IMG/VR virus record: IMGVR_UViG_3300045594_000116
Coordinates: 32,001-96,000 of that record
From: a virus
Taxonomy: Duplodnaviria > Caudoviricetes
Direction: 5' to 3' (one strand)
Length of the DNA stretch: 64,000 bases
The position numbers and the translations under genes are program-made. This document shows positions 1,537-56,904 of this stretch, one piece after another. Under the pieces are notes generated by a model. That model searched no databases. It was not told the origin of the DNA and worked only from the letters and a program-made list of their open reading frames with translations. Position 1 is the stretch's first letter; the number at the start of each line of letters is the position of its first letter.

Positions 1537-1557
1537 GCTAAAAAATAAATAAGAGAT

Positions 1558-1569
1558 ACATAAGAGTAA
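1558..1569 (+). promoter_or_regulatory. Late-type promoter ACA-TAAGAG-TAA, antisense to cassette A
   Basis: Matches the ACA-N6-TAA consensus found upstream of structural genes. Confidence 0.6.
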
Positions 1570-1624
1570 AAAAGAAAGCGTTACTTCGGATACTTTCTTT
1601 TCTATAATCTTTTAGCGCACTGGC

Positions 1625-1789
1625 TTAAAGACTACACTTTTTATCGAGAGCTATCATAGACTGCTCAAGCAATTCAAGGAAACCTTGTTCGGCGTCCTTC
1701 TTACTGCTAAAGGTCTTAGATGACTCTTTGCGTTGTTCTGCTGTATACTCTACAGCATCGGAAATACTTCCGATTTGACTGAATCTCAT
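1625..1789 (-). CDS. Small cassette-encoded protein A (54 aa, KTFxSxxDA motif)
   Basis: AAGGAG RBS with ATG at 1789. Shares the TFxSxx[DE] motif with the cassette B and C peptides. Confidence 0.7.
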   Translation of the reverse strand: MRFSQIGSISDAVEYTAEQRKESSKTFSSKKDAEQGFLELLEQSMIALDKKCSL

Positions 1790-1918
1790 TTTAGTCATCT
1801 CCTTTCTTAGAAAGGACAAGACCCTCTGCCATTGTGCGGCAGAGGGATATCTTGTGCATTTTCTTTATTCAAGGATATTATATATAACTAAAATATTAGA
1901 CTCCATCAAAAAATAAAA

Positions 1919-28687: not shown

Positions 28688-28768
28688 CATTTGTTAAAGT
28701 CATAAATTTCAAGTATATATAATATCAGTGAAAGAGAATAAAGTATATTTGAAAGGATATGATTTTAA

Positions 28769-28963
28769 ATGTTAAAAGGTAAAAAGTTCAGAAGCGGATC
28801 TATCGGAGAGAAATTGATGATAGGTATCTATGTTCCTTGGTATTTTATCCATGACGTAGCCTTCGAAGAAGTTCTTGAAGGATCGTGGGCAAACGTAGCA
28901 AAAATGGTAGGGGCTATGGTTGGCTTCTATCTGATCATGGTTGGCCTTGCAGTGATAGCTTAA
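28769..28963 (+). CDS. Small early membrane protein
   Basis: Early promoter at 28714-28724, hydrophobic C-terminus, terminator at 28968-28996. Confidence 0.7.
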   Translation: MLKGKKFRSGSIGEKLMIGIYVPWYFIHDVAFEEVLEGSWANVAKMVGAMVGFYLIMVGLAVIA

Positions 28964-31558: not shown

Positions 31559-31916
31559 ATTTCAGTTATATATAATATAAGTGAATAAAGAATACGTAGC
31601 ACAGAAAAACCCCTCTACCATAGCAGTGGTAGAGGGATATCTGCTGTCACGATTCTAGAAAGAGAGGTGACAATTGTGAAAGTTAGTGAAGTTAAGAACT
31701 TCGACGACGCCATCGTACTCGCCCTTAAAGAGTCTGGCATTCGTACTGATACTACATTCAACTCAGATGCTGAATGTATATCAAGCATGAATAAGGTCGT
31801 TGGCCGTGCCCATAAAATATGGGTAATGGCAGCTCCACTTATACATTGATTAGCATACGCTAATACAATGGAAAAAGAAAGTATCCGAAGTAACGCTTTC
31901 TTTTTTATCATTTTGT
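31559..31916 (+). repeat. Mini-gene cassette copy B
   Basis: 31559-31608 is identical (50 bp) to 39483-39532. AAAAGAAAGTATCCGAAGTAACGCTTTCTTTTTTA (31873-31907) is shared with copies A and C. Antisense late promoter at 31905-31916. Confidence 0.85.
31676..31849 (+). CDS. Small cassette-encoded protein B (57 aa)
   Basis: GAGGTG RBS and GTG start. TTFNSDAE and W...PLIH are shared with protein C. Confidence 0.7.
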   Translation: MKVSEVKNFDDAIVLALKESGIRTDTTFNSDAECISSMNKVVGRAHKIWVMAAPLIH

Positions 31917-31934: not shown

Positions 31935-34900
31935 TTACATCTGATCAAGATTCTTCCACTTAATCCCAAGCATTTCTTTACACTTACGATCAAGTTCAAC
32001 CAGTGCCTTATTAATTGCTCCAGTGATGATAATAGAACTTACCATACGAGCATTAACTGCTGATGTAGTAAGAAGAGCATCTACTGGTTCATCTGGTCTG
32101 AACTCTGTTCTAGGCTCATCACCCTTAGGCATTATATCTTTGACGACACCCTTGATAGAGTTATTATAGATAAGCTTATCGCCTACACCCATTTTATCTT
32201 CGCACTTAAGATAGAACTCGATAAGAACGCTATCTTGTGCTTTCTTGAGTTTGCCGTTTGCTTCAAGTTTATAGTCAGGCTCTAAGAGATATTTAGCACC
32301 CTCAATTTTATTTTTTGCAAACATGGCTTTATCTTTCTTGATCTGTGCTTCATAAGCTTTACAAATCTTTCTAAGAGAAGGAGAAAGATCCTCTAACTCA
32401 CAAGTTCTGTAAATCTTGATATCCTGAACCCAACCAGAAAGTTTACTTCTAAGATGTATACGTCCGAGATCAGATACAGCTTCTACGTCATCATCGGTGA
32501 TAGAGCGAAGCAATGCGTTAGCATCTTCTTCTTCAAATGCATTCTGGAATACCATAAGAGGATCTCCCTCATTGATAGCAGAACCTTTCTGTACCAGATT
32601 ATATACATTAGCATCCTTAGACAGAATCTTTTCCTTCTTGACTACATACGTACTGCTCATAGCATCTGACAAGTATTCATCAATGATAGATGAATCCTCG
32701 TATCCTTCATCTGTCGGAAGGATAGCAAGCTTACACATAGCTCCAATGGCATATGCCATATTCTTCGTATTCTTTTCAAGACCTACTGGTTTCTTATAAC
32801 AAGTAGAATCATAAGCAAGAATATCATTGTTATGAAGAATCTGCCCCTTCTTAACTTTTGGATCGAGCTTAAGAGTTACATAGAATCCACCATCTGAATT
32901 CTTCATTGTCTGCTCAGAAAGATTGATGAACTTACGTTCTTTGGTATCGCTATCTTCATAGATAAGATATCTATCAGTAACGTCAAGAACCTTACCTTTC
33001 TTTCCTTTGAAAGTAGCACAGAACAAATCTGATGTCATGTATGGAATAGCTTCATCCATGCCGGTAGTTATAAGATTAGGCATAGCCTTCTTGATACGCA
33101 TTGGATGTTTCGTGGACTGAATAAATCCCATTGCTACACGAATAGGATCATCATGTACAGTACAACCAGGATTCAAAGCCTCATGGATGCTAAGTGCATT
33201 AAGTGTATTTACATCCTTAGGAGTTTTGATCATTCCACGTACACCCTCTACAGATGCATTTATCGTAGCCTGACGAGTAATACCAACATTAGCGGCAAAA
33301 CCAGTAGACGATGCAACCACACCGAACATACTAGGATTGTATATACGCTTATCAAGACTGTAAGATCTATCAGAGTTCATACCAGATAGGCCTTTGAATG
33401 AAAGCGTATTAGCTTCCTCTGCTTCAAGCTGAGGATTCAATACAGATAGATCAGAGCATGTGCTATCCATAAGTACAGCATCAATTACTGCTGACTGTTT
33501 GACAGACATAGTCGCATCCTTCTTATTTCTCTTAAGCATAATGCGATATTCTCCATATGCTTTAGAAATAACTTTATCGAAGTACGCAGCAATGATTTCA
33601 TTGGTGCGGATTCTATTGCCAGAGATATCTGTATGAAGATTATACTTCGTATCTCCCAATAATGCACTAGCATAACCAAGAGCCGTTACATAATCATCTG
33701 GAAGATTATACGTATTACAAATCTCTTTAGTGATAGGATCAAACATGCAGTCATAGAAGTTATCCAAACCATCTGCTTTAATTCTTCCTCCAAAGTTATC
33801 TAAGAAGTCCAACCACATATTTTTGTTGTTGATATCTTTGATAGAGTAATCTTCTGTGTTACAGGTATACAAGCCGCTCATAAGAAGTGAGTTAGCTGTA
33901 GTATCCGGATATACTATATAGCCATCAGAGAACTTGATATAAGATTCATTAGCCTTAGGTCTTGTTTCACGGAATTCCGACTCTACTCCGGCTTTAGCCA
34001 TAGCCTGCTGTAATCCTTCACTGTATGCCATGACAACAATAACAGGAATTCCAGTAGCAAGAATAGAAGCTTCAGAATATGAAAGTCGTTTATCCGCCTT
34101 TATACCATCAAAGCAATCTAATCCCATATGAGATATGATTATAGACATGATGTCTGCACCGAAGTTTCCTGCATTACTACAAACGACCTTGCCCTTATCA
34201 TTTACATAGTAAGGGGTCATAGTAGGATCATCCTTGTCTTTAGGATTCATATAAGGCAGGCTAGTAAGTTCATCCATATTGAAACAGAGATATGATCCAT
34301 CTTTGAATATAACTTTGTTATAGTTAGAAGCTATATCTCTCATCTCGATAGGAATATCGTATTTCGAACATACAATGCTATTATCGCCTTCGATGATCTT
34401 CATTTTGTTTCCATCATACTTCTTGAGATACTTATTAATCACAGACATGGATTTCGTGGTTTTAGTACCATTTGAAGGATTGACACGACGAACAAAGATC
34501 TTATTATATGAACTTGATACTATCTGACAAGTATCTTCATCTGTTTTGATGATAGGAAGCAGTAATAACTGCCCATTCAAAACTTTTAGGTTACCACGCA
34601 ATTTCATAAAGCGATCATTTATGAATTTAGGAATGTCGAGTTTCAACGTGAATCTCTTACCATTGATATCTTCACACTTGATAGTCCATGTCTCAATATA
34701 ATCTTCGGTAGTAGATGTATCTTCCTTAATTATATCTAAGATTACGATAGGATTGGTCTTATTGTTAAGAGCCGCGAGACTATTGACAATATCTGATTCT
34801 AAGTTATACGACTTTGAGAATGTAGAGAACTGTATGTCTTTCCATTCTTCATTTATAGATTCAATAGGAATATTGTCTTTTGGCAAAGCCTGATTTGTTC

Positions 34901-38819: not shown

Positions 38820-38978
38820 TTTGTCATATTGGCAGCATAAGACCCCTCTACTCAATGCGAGTAGAGGGATCTTTTTTTTTTGTTATTCTAGATCATAATA
38901 ATCATATATTATATCTGTGATAGTTAGTACGTAATAGCAATTCCGCTATTACAATTAAAAAATTAGGAGGAACTAATT

Positions 38979-39482: not shown

Positions 39483-39844
39483 ATTTCAGTTATATATAAT
39501 ATAAGTGAATAAAGAATACGTAGCACAGAAAATCCCTCTACCACCGCCATGGTAGAGGGGATATCTGCTGTCACTATTCTAGGAAAGAGAGGTGACAATT
39601 GTGAACAAACCAGAATTTTGTTCTGACTTCCTTGTTGAGGAAGCCAAGGATAAAACGTTTGCTTCTCAAGAAGAAGCGATGGACCACTTGTTTAACGCGC
39701 TTACCATAGCCAACAACAAGTGGGCTCATGAAGAAACTCCACTAGTACATACGGCATAAGCCTTATCTCTAATAAGAGTTGGAAAAGAAAGTATCCGAAG
39801 TAACGCTTTCTTTTTTACTCTTATGTATCTCTTATTTATTTTTT
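39483..39844 (+). repeat. Mini-gene cassette copy C (5' end matches B, 3' end matches A)
   Basis: 50-bp identity with B and 63-bp identity with A (inverted). Antisense late promoter at 39815-39826. Confidence 0.85.
39601..39759 (+). CDS. Small cassette-encoded protein C (52 aa, MNKPEFCSDFLVEEAKDKTFASQEEA...PLVHTA), not in the ORF track
   Basis: Same RBS/GTG context as cassette B; KTFASQEEA motif. Confidence 0.72.
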   Translation: MNKPEFCSDFLVEEAKDKTFASQEEAMDHLFNALTIANNKWAHEETPLVHTA

Positions 39845-54636: not shown

Positions 54637-54852
54637 ATGAGTAATTCCAAAATTGTTTCAGTCGAGTTCAAGAAGAATAGTAAATTCGATCCTACAGATG
54701 TCATCGTGACATTCGACGATGGCCGAGTAACTAAGATCTTCGACTACTTTGAAGATGAAATTACCTTCTTCGCTAATGAGCTCATTGGGCTCACAGAGAA
54801 AGAGGCTGGAGATCTCTATATGAAAAAAGATATGCATTATCTTCGTTCATAA
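54637..54852 (+). CDS. Small early conserved hypothetical protein
   Basis: Early promoter at 54561-54571, AAGGAGG RBS, own terminator, and an antisense late-type promoter at 54899-54910. Confidence 0.78.
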   Translation: MSNSKIVSVEFKKNSKFDPTDVIVTFDDGRVTKIFDYFEDEITFFANELIGLTEKEAGDLYMKKDMHYLRS

Positions 54853-54960: not shown

Positions 54961-56904
54961 ATGGGATATGCATATACTATAACACAAGATACAGTTGCCA
55001 GAGCTGATTGCGCTGATGATGCTGCCGTAACTGCTAATATTGCAGCTGGCACAACTCTTGGCGTAGATGAAGTATCTGGTGGTTGGTATCATACCGGTAA
55101 AGGCTGGATATACATGATGTATTCTCCAGGTGGTGGTAAGAATGATATTTGTATTCTTAATAAGGCAGATACTAGTACGGCTTCCCTTGATAAAGGAAGT
55201 TCCGTAACCTTTAAACAAGGTGATGATTTCTACGACATAGGTGGAAATCTTATGAAAAGCGCTACTAATTATATCATAAGTGATTATAATTCTAGCACCG
55301 GTATAGTAACGCTTACTGATGGAACAAATACGTATCATGTAAATAAAGATCTTATATCTACTATAGATAAGGATGGAACTGTTGTCATTCCAGGAAATAT
55401 AGCAGAGGCTAGTACAGGAGTTTTGACTGATGATGGTACGTACACTACAGTTACTAAGGAATCGGTTCTAGATCAGGCTAAGAATGCATTAAAGTCTGCT
55501 AAGGATTCTTTTTTCTCTAGCGGTGATAGCGCTACTAGTAATGGTAAAAATCTAGATTTACGAGTAAGTACGGCACATGGTATATTTGGTATGCCGTATC
55601 AGTATATGCCGATAGCAGATCCTAGGGAAGATGAGTCGAATCAGGATGCATTTGGTTTGACATACTCAGATCGTATAGCTGCTAGAATGCCTCTTATGGT
55701 TATGATACCTGGAGTACCTGAATTTTTAGCCGGTAAGAGCGATAAGGAAAAGAAAAGTTTCGCCGAGAAATTATTAAATCTTAATGCTGGAGACTTATCT
55801 GATGATCTTACCAACCTCATTAGTACACCTGGTAAGTATTATGGAATGAAGCAAGATTGGGCTTCATACTACAAGTACGTAGATGTAATGTGTGATACGG
55901 CTGCTCATCTTCTCAATGTCGATGATGTAGATTACTTTAATGGAAAACTCGGAGACTATAACTGGTATAAAGCTAGTAATGATGATCTTAGAAAGAAGTT
56001 AAACTACAAAGGCGGAGTTGCATTCTATGTAAATGCTGAGAACACAGTATCTGAGTCGTTCTCGAATGCGACTACGCAATCAGCATTACTTAGTAAAATT
56101 AATGGTCTTTCTGATATCGGCCGTGAAATTAACTTTATCACTGGTGCCAAGAATGATACACTTGGTAAAGACTCTGATAAGGTATCCAATGGCGATAATG
56201 CAATGAAGGCCAATGAAAAAGCTCAACAGGCAGAAAAGATCGCAGGCCATGGTGGTACTGTACAGAATCTTATTGGCGCATTAGGATCGGGTTTAACCAC
56301 TGTTATCTCTGGTGGTAAACTCATGTTTCCTGAGATATGGCAGGATTCACAGTTCTCTAGAGATTATAATGTAAGTATCAAACTCACCTCTCCAGATTGT
56401 GATAACCTTTCTATATTTTTAAATATTATTGTTCCATATTTACATCTCGTTGCATTTGTAGCACCTCATAACGTCAACGTTAATGGATATATATCTCCAT
56501 TCTTGGCTCGTGTATACTACAAAGGCATGTTTAACTGTGATATGGGAATGGTAACTTCTATGTCTGTATCTAAAGGCGGAGATGGAAACTGGACACCATC
56601 TGGCATTCCTACAGTTATAGAGGTACAGCTTTCTATAAAAGAACTATATGGAACTATGTCAATCAATAATAGTCAGCAGGCTAATGGAACTGGTATCCTT
56701 TCTAATTTGATTCTTATGGATTATATTGGTAATCTTTGCGGAATTAATATTCAGGATATGGATCTTCCACGTATGGCTGCATTCTATTACGCAATGTACG
56801 TCCATAATAGATTCACCTCATACTTCTACGAGAATATCGAATCTGAGTTAAACAACTGGATTGATAATCGTAGGTTGGGCTTCTCTCGGCTATTTGGCAG
56901 TTAA
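54961..56904 (+). CDS. Putative baseplate / tail-tube-initiator-like virion protein with an N-terminal SH3-like segment
   Basis: Late promoter at 54925-54936; lies downstream of the tape measure. Contains GWYHTGKGWI and a C-terminal FPEIW..S.FSR...W...G.PT pattern. Confidence 0.6.
   Translation: MGYAYTITQDTVARADCADDAAVTANIAAGTTLGVDEVSGGWYHTGKGWIYMMYSPGGGKNDICILNKADTSTASLDKGSSVTFKQGDDFYDIGGNLMKSATNYIISDYNSSTGIVTLTDGTNTYHVNKDLISTIDKDGTVVIPGNIAEASTGVLTDDGTYTTVTKESVLDQAKNALKSAKDSFFSSGDSATSNGKNLDLRVSTAHGIFGMPYQYMPIADPREDESNQDAFGLTYSDRIAARMPLMVMIPGVPEFLAGKSDKEKKSFAEKLLNLNAGDLSDDLTNLISTPGKYYGMKQDWASYYKYVDVMCDTAAHLLNVDDVDYFNGKLGDYNWYKASNDDLRKKLNYKGGVAFYVNAENTVSESFSNATTQSALLSKINGLSDIGREINFITGAKNDTLGKDSDKVSNGDNAMKANEKAQQAEKIAGHGGTVQNLIGALGSGLTTVISGGKLMFPEIWQDSQFSRDYNVSIKLTSPDCDNLSIFLNIIVPYLHLVAFVAPHNVNVNGYISPFLARVYYKGMFNCDMGMVTSMSVSKGGDGNWTPSGIPTVIEVQLSIKELYGTMSINNSQQANGTGILSNLILMDYIGNLCGINIQDMDLPRMAAFYYAMYVHNRFTSYFYENIESELNNWIDNRRLGFSRLFGS

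Follow-up and report, generated by a model that had tools for sequence, protein, structure and literature searches.

Dispersed early peptide cassettes of an AR9/PBS1-like jumbo phage and their predicted late antisense transcription units

The stretch of DNA analyzed here (the window; 64,000 nucleotides) comprises bases 32001 to 96000 of a 229.5-kb virus record and encodes split RNA polymerase (RNAP) subunits. The best isolate matches of these subunits were to Bacillus, Listeria, and Staphylococcus jumbo phages, at approximately 30% identity; thus, by sequence, the phage is an AR9/PBS1-like two-polymerase jumbo phage. The runs that hold it came from bioreactor sludge and wastewater, its GGAGG/GAGGTG ribosome sites suggest a Firmicute host, and a megablast search against GenBank phages returned 0 matches. 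The phage is uncultured.

Three loci in the window, which we refer to as cassettes A, B, and C, have one common layout, and every element that a first-pass annotation had named in them is present (Table 1). Genome-wide, we counted six such cassettes, with D, E, and F lying outside the window. All six combine an early promoter of the AR9 type with a hairpin in the leader, an occluded ribosome-binding site (RBS), and an open reading frame (ORF) for a non-hydrophobic peptide of 49 to 59 amino acids. The 3' ends of A to C share an invariant element, which a search of the 229.5-kb genome confirmed to be identical over 34 bp in the three; even when up to 6 mismatches were allowed, the search found no further copies. 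A and C have 63 identical 3' bases and are therefore not independent.

Table 1. Coordinates of cassette features (window positions unless genome is stated; SD, Shine-Dalgarno sequence; PWM, late-promoter matrix score; nvRNAP, non-virion RNAP)
Feature	Position	Strand	Remark
A early (virion RNAP-type) promoter, TATATATAAT-N6-G	1877..1886	-	predicted +1 at 1870; AR9 consensus, PMC5312081
A leader hairpin	1822..1846	+	terminator-like on antisense (+) strand, also on sense strand
A RBS-occluding hairpin	1800..1816	-	covers AAGGA of SD
ORF A, 54 aa, non-hydrophobic, family member	1625..1789	-	
A invariant 34-bp 3' element	1568..1601	-	weak sense terminator; 5' end of predicted antisense RNA
A antisense late (nvRNAP-type) promoter, ACA-N6-TAA	1558..1569	+	PWM 15.6; predicted +1 at 1568
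Predicted antisense RNA A, ~287 nt	1568..1854	+	inferred
B early promoter	31567..31576	+	predicted +1 at 31583
B leader hairpin	31609..31638	-	terminator-like, antisense strand only
B RBS-occluding hairpin	31645..31672	+	TGTCAC/GTGACA around GAGGTG
ORF B, 57 aa (60 aa from upstream in-frame GTG)	31676..31849	+	
B invariant 34-bp 3' element	31873..31906	+	also faces convergent RNAP-subunit gene ending at 31935
B antisense late promoter, different spacer	31905..31916	-	PWM 11.2; predicted +1 at 31906
Predicted antisense RNA B, ~304 nt	31603..31906	-	inferred
C early promoter	39491..39500	+	predicted +1 at 39507
C leader hairpin	39534..39559	-	terminator-like, antisense strand only
C RBS-occluding hairpin	39569..39597	+	
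ORF C, 52 aa (55 aa from upstream GTG)	39601..39759	+	two-helix model, pLDDT 85
C invariant 34-bp 3' element	39783..39816	+	63 bp identical to A
C antisense late promoter	39815..39826	-	PWM 15.6; predicted +1 at 39816
Predicted antisense RNA C, ~291 nt	39526..39816	-	inferred
Cassette D	genome 150811-150966	+	outside window
Cassette E	genome 172693-172842	-	outside window
Cassette F	genome 216234-216413	-	outside window

The ORFs had been described as diverged. They are indeed divergent, but they are not simply diverged, since all peptides except that of E (A, B, C, D, and F) resemble members of a single paralogous family. Pairwise comparison gave a z score of 7.1 for C and D and 2.7 to 4.5 for most other pairs; A and F were not significantly similar, and homology of peptide E to any of the other five was undetectable by this approach. 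Third-position and synonymous bias relative to strain and sister orthologues provides a coding signal (third-position differences, 16 of 25 in E and 30 of 56 in D), and most database members, from dozens of contigs, are full length. Two AlphaFold runs produced a helix-loop-helix (pLDDT, 85 to 87). The peptides have GRAVY values of -0.56 to +0.08 and a maximum 19-residue hydropathy of 0.67, with no transmembrane stretch. No family, and no toxin family, was matched in Pfam, PHROG, or NCBIfam, and a fold search of the two-helix model against PDB, BFVD, and the Atlas gave no significant match. Searches of 5.8 billion proteins, 1.84 billion representatives, and the ESM Atlas recovered members only in strains of this phage and in a single sister phage (ERZ27284607 / SRR3053189); at the sequence level, the family is restricted to one species and its sister phage. 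A peptide profile had 0 matches in 16 related IMG/VR records, the cassette layout was absent from four fetched relatives, and pattern scans with the leader and 3' end across viral, metagenome, and genome collections yielded chance matches or one close strain. Hairpin-loop matches in unrelated phages were discounted, since the motif itself had selected them.

Natural alleles vary at the start codon and in frame. In some C strain alleles, the proposed GTG start is replaced by GCG together with a change of GAGAGG to GAAAGG, with the ORF intact (contigs L078 to L083; approximately 2001 to 2012 in L078), which suggests either use of the upstream GTG or near-silencing. Since these alleles keep the frame, the upstream in-frame GTG may serve in B to E. 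Separately, A and D alleles are frameshifted at A-runs (contigs L326/L327, 3001 to 3138, and L323, 1501 to 1695), the L323 allele also having a changed 3' hairpin loop; these may be natural inactivations or homopolymer errors.

In the AR9 transcription study (PMC5312081), the mapped early motif is AAATATATATTAT-N6-G and the mapped late motif is AACA-N6-TA/G. In the present phage, 22 of 24 occurrences of TATATATTAT-N6 have a G next to them, and the early motif TATATATTAT-N6-G and the late motif ACA-N6-TA, which match the AR9 consensus, are both enriched upstream of genes. The minority early variant TATATATAAT-N6-G is used by five cassettes, the exception being D, with TATGTATAAT-N6-G. The early promoter assignment of the first-pass annotation is supported, with the motif refined to TATATATAAT-N6-G and the predicted starts to those in Table 1. 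Outside the cassettes, TATATATAAT-N6-G was found at only two genes, both small early ORFs of 64 and 101 amino acids (window 28714 to 28963, plus strand, and genome 217358, minus strand). Elsewhere (genome 214226 to 214428, minus strand), an early promoter and a 293-amino-acid gene are separated by a leader of 202 nt, in which there is a strong, GC-rich hairpin.

Predicted folds of the cassette mRNAs point to poor ribosome access, in support of the suggestion that the message is translationally damped. The opening energy of the initiation region is 8.8 to 15.0 kcal/mol in the cassettes, compared to a median of 6.1 kcal/mol for other genes and a range of 1.6 to 9.2 kcal/mol for other early genes. 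The RBS hairpin of A differs from that of B to F, and both occlude the RBS. Folding z scores of the ORFs were -3.6 to -5.8 in A, B, E, and F and -1.3 ± 1.1 in controls. Two longer-range structures were rejected: kissing of the leader loop with the region past the stop codon was top-ranked in only 5 of 18 variants (those of type A or F and a single E window that was over-long) and failed in B, C, and D, and conserved pairing of the 5' and 3' mRNA ends appeared only in the folds of C and of sister-phage contig L324, with no covariation.

On the opposite strand of A, B, and C, ACA-N6-TAA is present as annotated, and its distribution supports the late promoter assignment: upstream of genes, it occurs 41 times in the sense and 7 times in the antisense orientation, while other spacers give 2 to 10. 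Four relatives have a similar sense bias, and, judging from these sequences, ACA-N6-TAA is the late promoter motif of the clade. A matrix built from the 41 sense sites (score range, 7.3 to 16.2) places the antisense sites of A and C near the top of the range (Table 1). The combination of element and motif occurs 3 times against 0.02 expected. A site abutting the T-run of a gene end was found in 3 of 6 cassettes, compared with 1 of the 87 gene ends elsewhere (P = 6e-4); when A and C were counted once and five genomes were pooled (relatives, 2 of 266), P was 1.5e-3, and both values overstate independence, as the common features descend from one ancestor. The best sequence evidence of selection on the motif is comparative. 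The D orthologue of the sister phage (61% amino acid identity) combines an A-to-C-like hairpin with the exact motif, here scoring 14.1 and built on a third spacer, so that ACA and TAA are retained in register across three different spacers; among strain variants, the spacer or the bases just upstream of ACA have changed, but ACA and TAA never have.

The remaining cassettes of the phage itself are less uniform. The first-pass annotation had held that copies lacking ACA-N6-TAA would speak against its reading, and D, E, and F do so in part, in weakened form: the invariant 34-bp element is itself absent from all three. D and F have ACA-N7-TAA, a form with no enrichment upstream of genes here (15 sense versus 14 antisense), and AR9 has a mapped late start with a 7-nt spacer (g074; PMC5312081). 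E has no match; its site appears decayed, the sister phage retaining ACA-N6-CAA as a relic. The ORFs and leaders of D, E, and F are all intact, so a switch based on the exact motif would be dispensable for half the family. In addition, much of the TAA is supplied free by the A-run of the hairpin, which counts against reading the motif as part of an off-switch.

In a 71-amino-acid early gene (window 54637 to 54852, plus strand), an antisense ACA-N6-TAA abuts the terminator tail; its flanks are non-consensus, and it is probably due to chance. At three other strong late-promoter sites (window 24374 and 24529, minus strand; genome 159579, minus strand), the sequence shortly downstream contains no called gene, which makes them candidate starts of non-coding RNAs. 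A sigma-70-type match, TTCACA-17/18-TAGAAT (10 of 12 positions), overlaps, on the antisense strand of B, C, and D, both the RBS hairpin and the start codon (window 31652 to 31680 and 39576 to 39605 and contig L004 1609 to 1637, all minus strand); it may produce an RNA of approximately 45 nt by host RNAP, ending at the leader terminator, or be inherited chance.

The leaders of B to F are 80 to 97% identical to one another and that of A is approximately 75% identical; judging from sequence, the cassette ends (leaders and 3' ends) are mosaic. In relatives with approximately 55 to 60% RNAP identity, there is no room for a cassette between the genes flanking A, D, and E, and the cassettes are therefore insertions specific to this lineage, placed between core genes in either orientation. 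Two contigs have swapped junctions: contig L318 (878 to 1680) joins the genes upstream of C via a leader to ORF F and the gene that follows it, and RNA contig X16 joins window position 38902, in the upstream flank of C, to 31567, a leader with the start of ORF B. These may reflect leader recombination or inversion, or misassembly at a repeat. A distant relative, G006, has its own family of early promoter-leader-RBS repeats (e.g., 55464 to 55577 and 217915 to 218027), whose identity reaches 94% over 114 nt and which have neither hairpins nor an antisense site, a PeSL-like background in the clade. Another distant relative (59% RNAP identity) has an IS605-type TnpB gene at the site equivalent to that of cassette A (contig L018 8740 to 9858, minus strand); in a comparison with IS200/IS605-derived palindromic elements, no cassette-like ends were seen beside it. 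Lastly, a group I intron (RF00028; 67 and 64 bits) lies just upstream of the neighbor of cassette D (contig L004 626 to 980, minus strand; genome ~149804 to 150158) and, in the sister phage, in or beside a DNA polymerase gene (contig L324 2009 to 2349, minus strand).

This pattern raises an explanation in which the units are PeSL-like early cassettes spread by duplication and recombination, ACA-N6-TAA is an inherited by-product of the terminator tail, and any antisense RNA is noise. It accounts for the mosaic leaders and 3' ends (96.5% identity of the B and F leaders; identical 3' ends of A and C), for the missing cassettes in relatives that own repeated early leaders, for the two contigs in which a leader is connected to a different flank or ORF, and for the absence of the exact motif from half of the copies. 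It does not predict that motif and register would be kept across three spacers when the background rate is approximately 1% and true late sites are otherwise nearly all upstream of genes. Moreover, the PeSL stem-loop stops upstream sense transcription (PMC2839356), whereas the cassette hairpin lies downstream of the +1 and is antisense. We consider this explanation unlikely.

The position of the terminators indicates how far an antisense RNA might extend. The leader hairpin and its U-rich tail belong to a genome-wide family, members of which lie 25 to 35 nt past the stop codons of four ordinary genes, on the strand of the gene in each case. In six of six cassettes, the tail is instead on the antisense strand, 50 to 60 nt upstream of the start codon, and an independent scan called the hairpin terminator-like on that strand in every cassette; A was the only copy in which the sense strand was called as well. 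In 5 of 6 cassettes, the next gene downstream runs in the same direction, so no neighbor supplies a transcript needing that terminator. Of the two antisense RNA lengths originally proposed, approximately 300 and approximately 35 nt, the first is favored by this terminator; the predicted RNA of 287 to 304 nt would start where the mRNA ends, cover the ORF and RBS, and stop approximately 20 nt before the early start. A to C thus contain, as sequence signals, a cis antisense unit that spans RBS and ORF and has a promoter and a terminator of its own, and we think it probable that the RNA exists; the RNA runs are unstranded contigs of low depth that give neither strand nor ends. A protein encoded on the antisense strand was rejected, as there is no common ORF and no RBS. 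No Rfam covariance model reached its gathering score over the cassettes, the only hits being sub-threshold ones to SpF66.

The shorter product is the basis of a second alternative, in which the late promoter yields only a hairpin RNA of approximately 35 nt from the invariant element, acting for example as a protein decoy, while the leader hairpin stabilizes the mRNA. The conservation of the element fits this well: its 34 bp are identical in A to C and nearly so in the D orthologue of the sister phage, exceeding the usual terminator conservation here, and the loop sequence is retained without consistent pairing. There is also a U-rich run after the antisense hairpin, and the D hairpin was called terminator-like on that strand. 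However, the hairpin of A to C has a predicted energy of only -8 to -9 kcal/mol and was called a terminator on neither strand, the loop has point changes among strains, and no Rfam family matched. The first-pass annotation read C-UUCG-G in this hairpin on the antisense strand; the best structure from the folding program does not use C(UUCG)G as a tetraloop. The alternative would leave the antisense-oriented terminators of all six leaders unexplained, and we regard a 35-nt product as quite improbable. A stabilizing role of the leader hairpin is nonetheless an alternative to its terminator role and counts against an off-switch.

Taken together, the best reading, to which we assign a probability of roughly 0.55 from sequence, is that the cassettes are self-contained timing modules of two polymerases, in which a late antisense RNA made in cis switches off early peptides that are only weakly translated. 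From the early motif, the virion RNAP would produce a monocistronic mRNA of approximately 300 to 325 nt right after injection. With the SD locked in a predicted hairpin and the message densely folded, little peptide would be made. Once present, the non-virion RNAP would start on the other strand at the 3' end of the unit, as the supported late motif suggests, pass the weak 3' hairpin, the ORF, and the RBS, and stop at the antisense terminator in the leader. By analogy to ibs/Sib, the resulting RNA of approximately 290 to 305 nt would pair with its own mRNA, leading to a translation block and RNase III cleavage, and head-on polymerase traffic could add to silencing. Because the ORFs have diverged, the antisense RNAs would be mostly copy-specific. 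The net result would be an early pulse of small amphipathic two-helix proteins, which, in the least supported step, are most likely host-binding effectors that help early and are costly later. The switch would be intact in A to C and weaker in D and F, while E has probably lost it. AR9 early transcripts can still be present at 40 min, and seven of the late promoters of that phage give rise to antisense RNA (PMC5312081), which makes a late antisense off-switch for briefly needed genes coherent.

The earlier proposal of a module that is either type I toxin-antitoxin-like or a timer holds better in its second form. A true type I toxin-antitoxin or immunity system, in which the antisense RNA protects in a carrier state or silences the genes of a superinfecting sibling, would share several hallmarks with the cassettes, namely, dispersed multicopy loci, full overlap of RBS and ORF, a sequestered SD, and a structured mRNA. 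Divergent ORFs would allow copy-specific neutralization, and non-hydrophobic type I toxins exist (SymE). Yet the peptides have neither a transmembrane stretch nor a match to a toxin family, and the ORFs are intact in copies lacking a good antisense promoter. The antitoxin would also follow the toxin in time, the reverse of an addiction module. We consider such a system very improbable.

The Ibs peptides of the ibs/Sib system are short (~18 to 19 amino acids) and hydrophobic; the present peptides, at 49 to 59 amino acids, are neither hydrophobic nor related to them in sequence. In Escherichia coli, ibs/Sib has five dispersed paralogous copies with an antisense RNA that spans the whole coding region and RBS (PMC4147584), and the cassettes resemble it in their dispersed paralogues, full overlap, sequestered SD, and predicted cis-antisense control of a small protein. 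The difference is that ibs/Sib is chromosomal with both strands transcribed by host RNAP, whereas here the two strands are assigned to two temporally separate RNAPs of a jumbo phage. By this analogy, the cassettes would work like ibs/Sib, yet we do not class them as a type I system because the peptides are neither hydrophobic nor known toxins and toxicity is only putative. The txpA/RatA and Fst/RNAII systems of Firmicutes likewise have convergent transcripts and silence by duplex formation and RNase III (PMC4147584), but their transcripts overlap only at the 3' ends and their toxins are hydrophobic, while the overlap predicted here is nearly the whole mRNA.

Among phages, antisense RNAs are known in AR9, phiR1-37, and PAK_P3, although not as a repeated module wired to two polymerases. 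AR9 has the same two-polymerase system, near-identical motifs, and antisense RNA from late promoters mostly late in infection; in the available part of that study, its antisense cases are single starts, with no repeated cassette, dedicated antisense terminator, or paralogous peptides described (PMC5312081). The PeSLs of T4-type phages are similar in their repeated early promoter, stem-loop, and SD before ORFans and in the mosaic make-up of the copies, but they use host sigma-70 promoters, their stem-loop acts on upstream sense transcription (PMC2839356), and they lack the convergent late promoter, antisense unit, and paralogous ORFs of the present cassettes. In the lytic phage PAK_P3, antisense RNA was also proposed for temporal control (PMC4933390), but there the polarity is reversed, the antisense RNA being early and directed at late structural genes, and the arrangement lacks a modular cassette. 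The first-pass annotation knew of no description of this arrangement, and our literature searches, which covered few subscription papers, found no published account. Cis-antisense control of small proteins is known already; what would be new is a repeated antisense module of this kind.

A tentative extension, which we think rather less likely to hold than to fail, is that the cassette is a portable timer of approximately 350 bp, placed at six unrelated core-gene junctions, that controls diversifying host-targeting or anti-defense proteins, and that its late RNAs might silence the genes of an incoming sibling. In AR9, early transcription needs no protein synthesis (PMC5312081). If the off-switch reading is true, coupling shutoff to the arrival of the second polymerase would provide a concrete mechanism for turning off individual early genes, an RNA-level answer to early-gene shutdown in phages with a self-sufficient virion polymerase. 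The small unannotated proteins, restrained at two levels, would then be candidate host-takeover or anti-defense factors.
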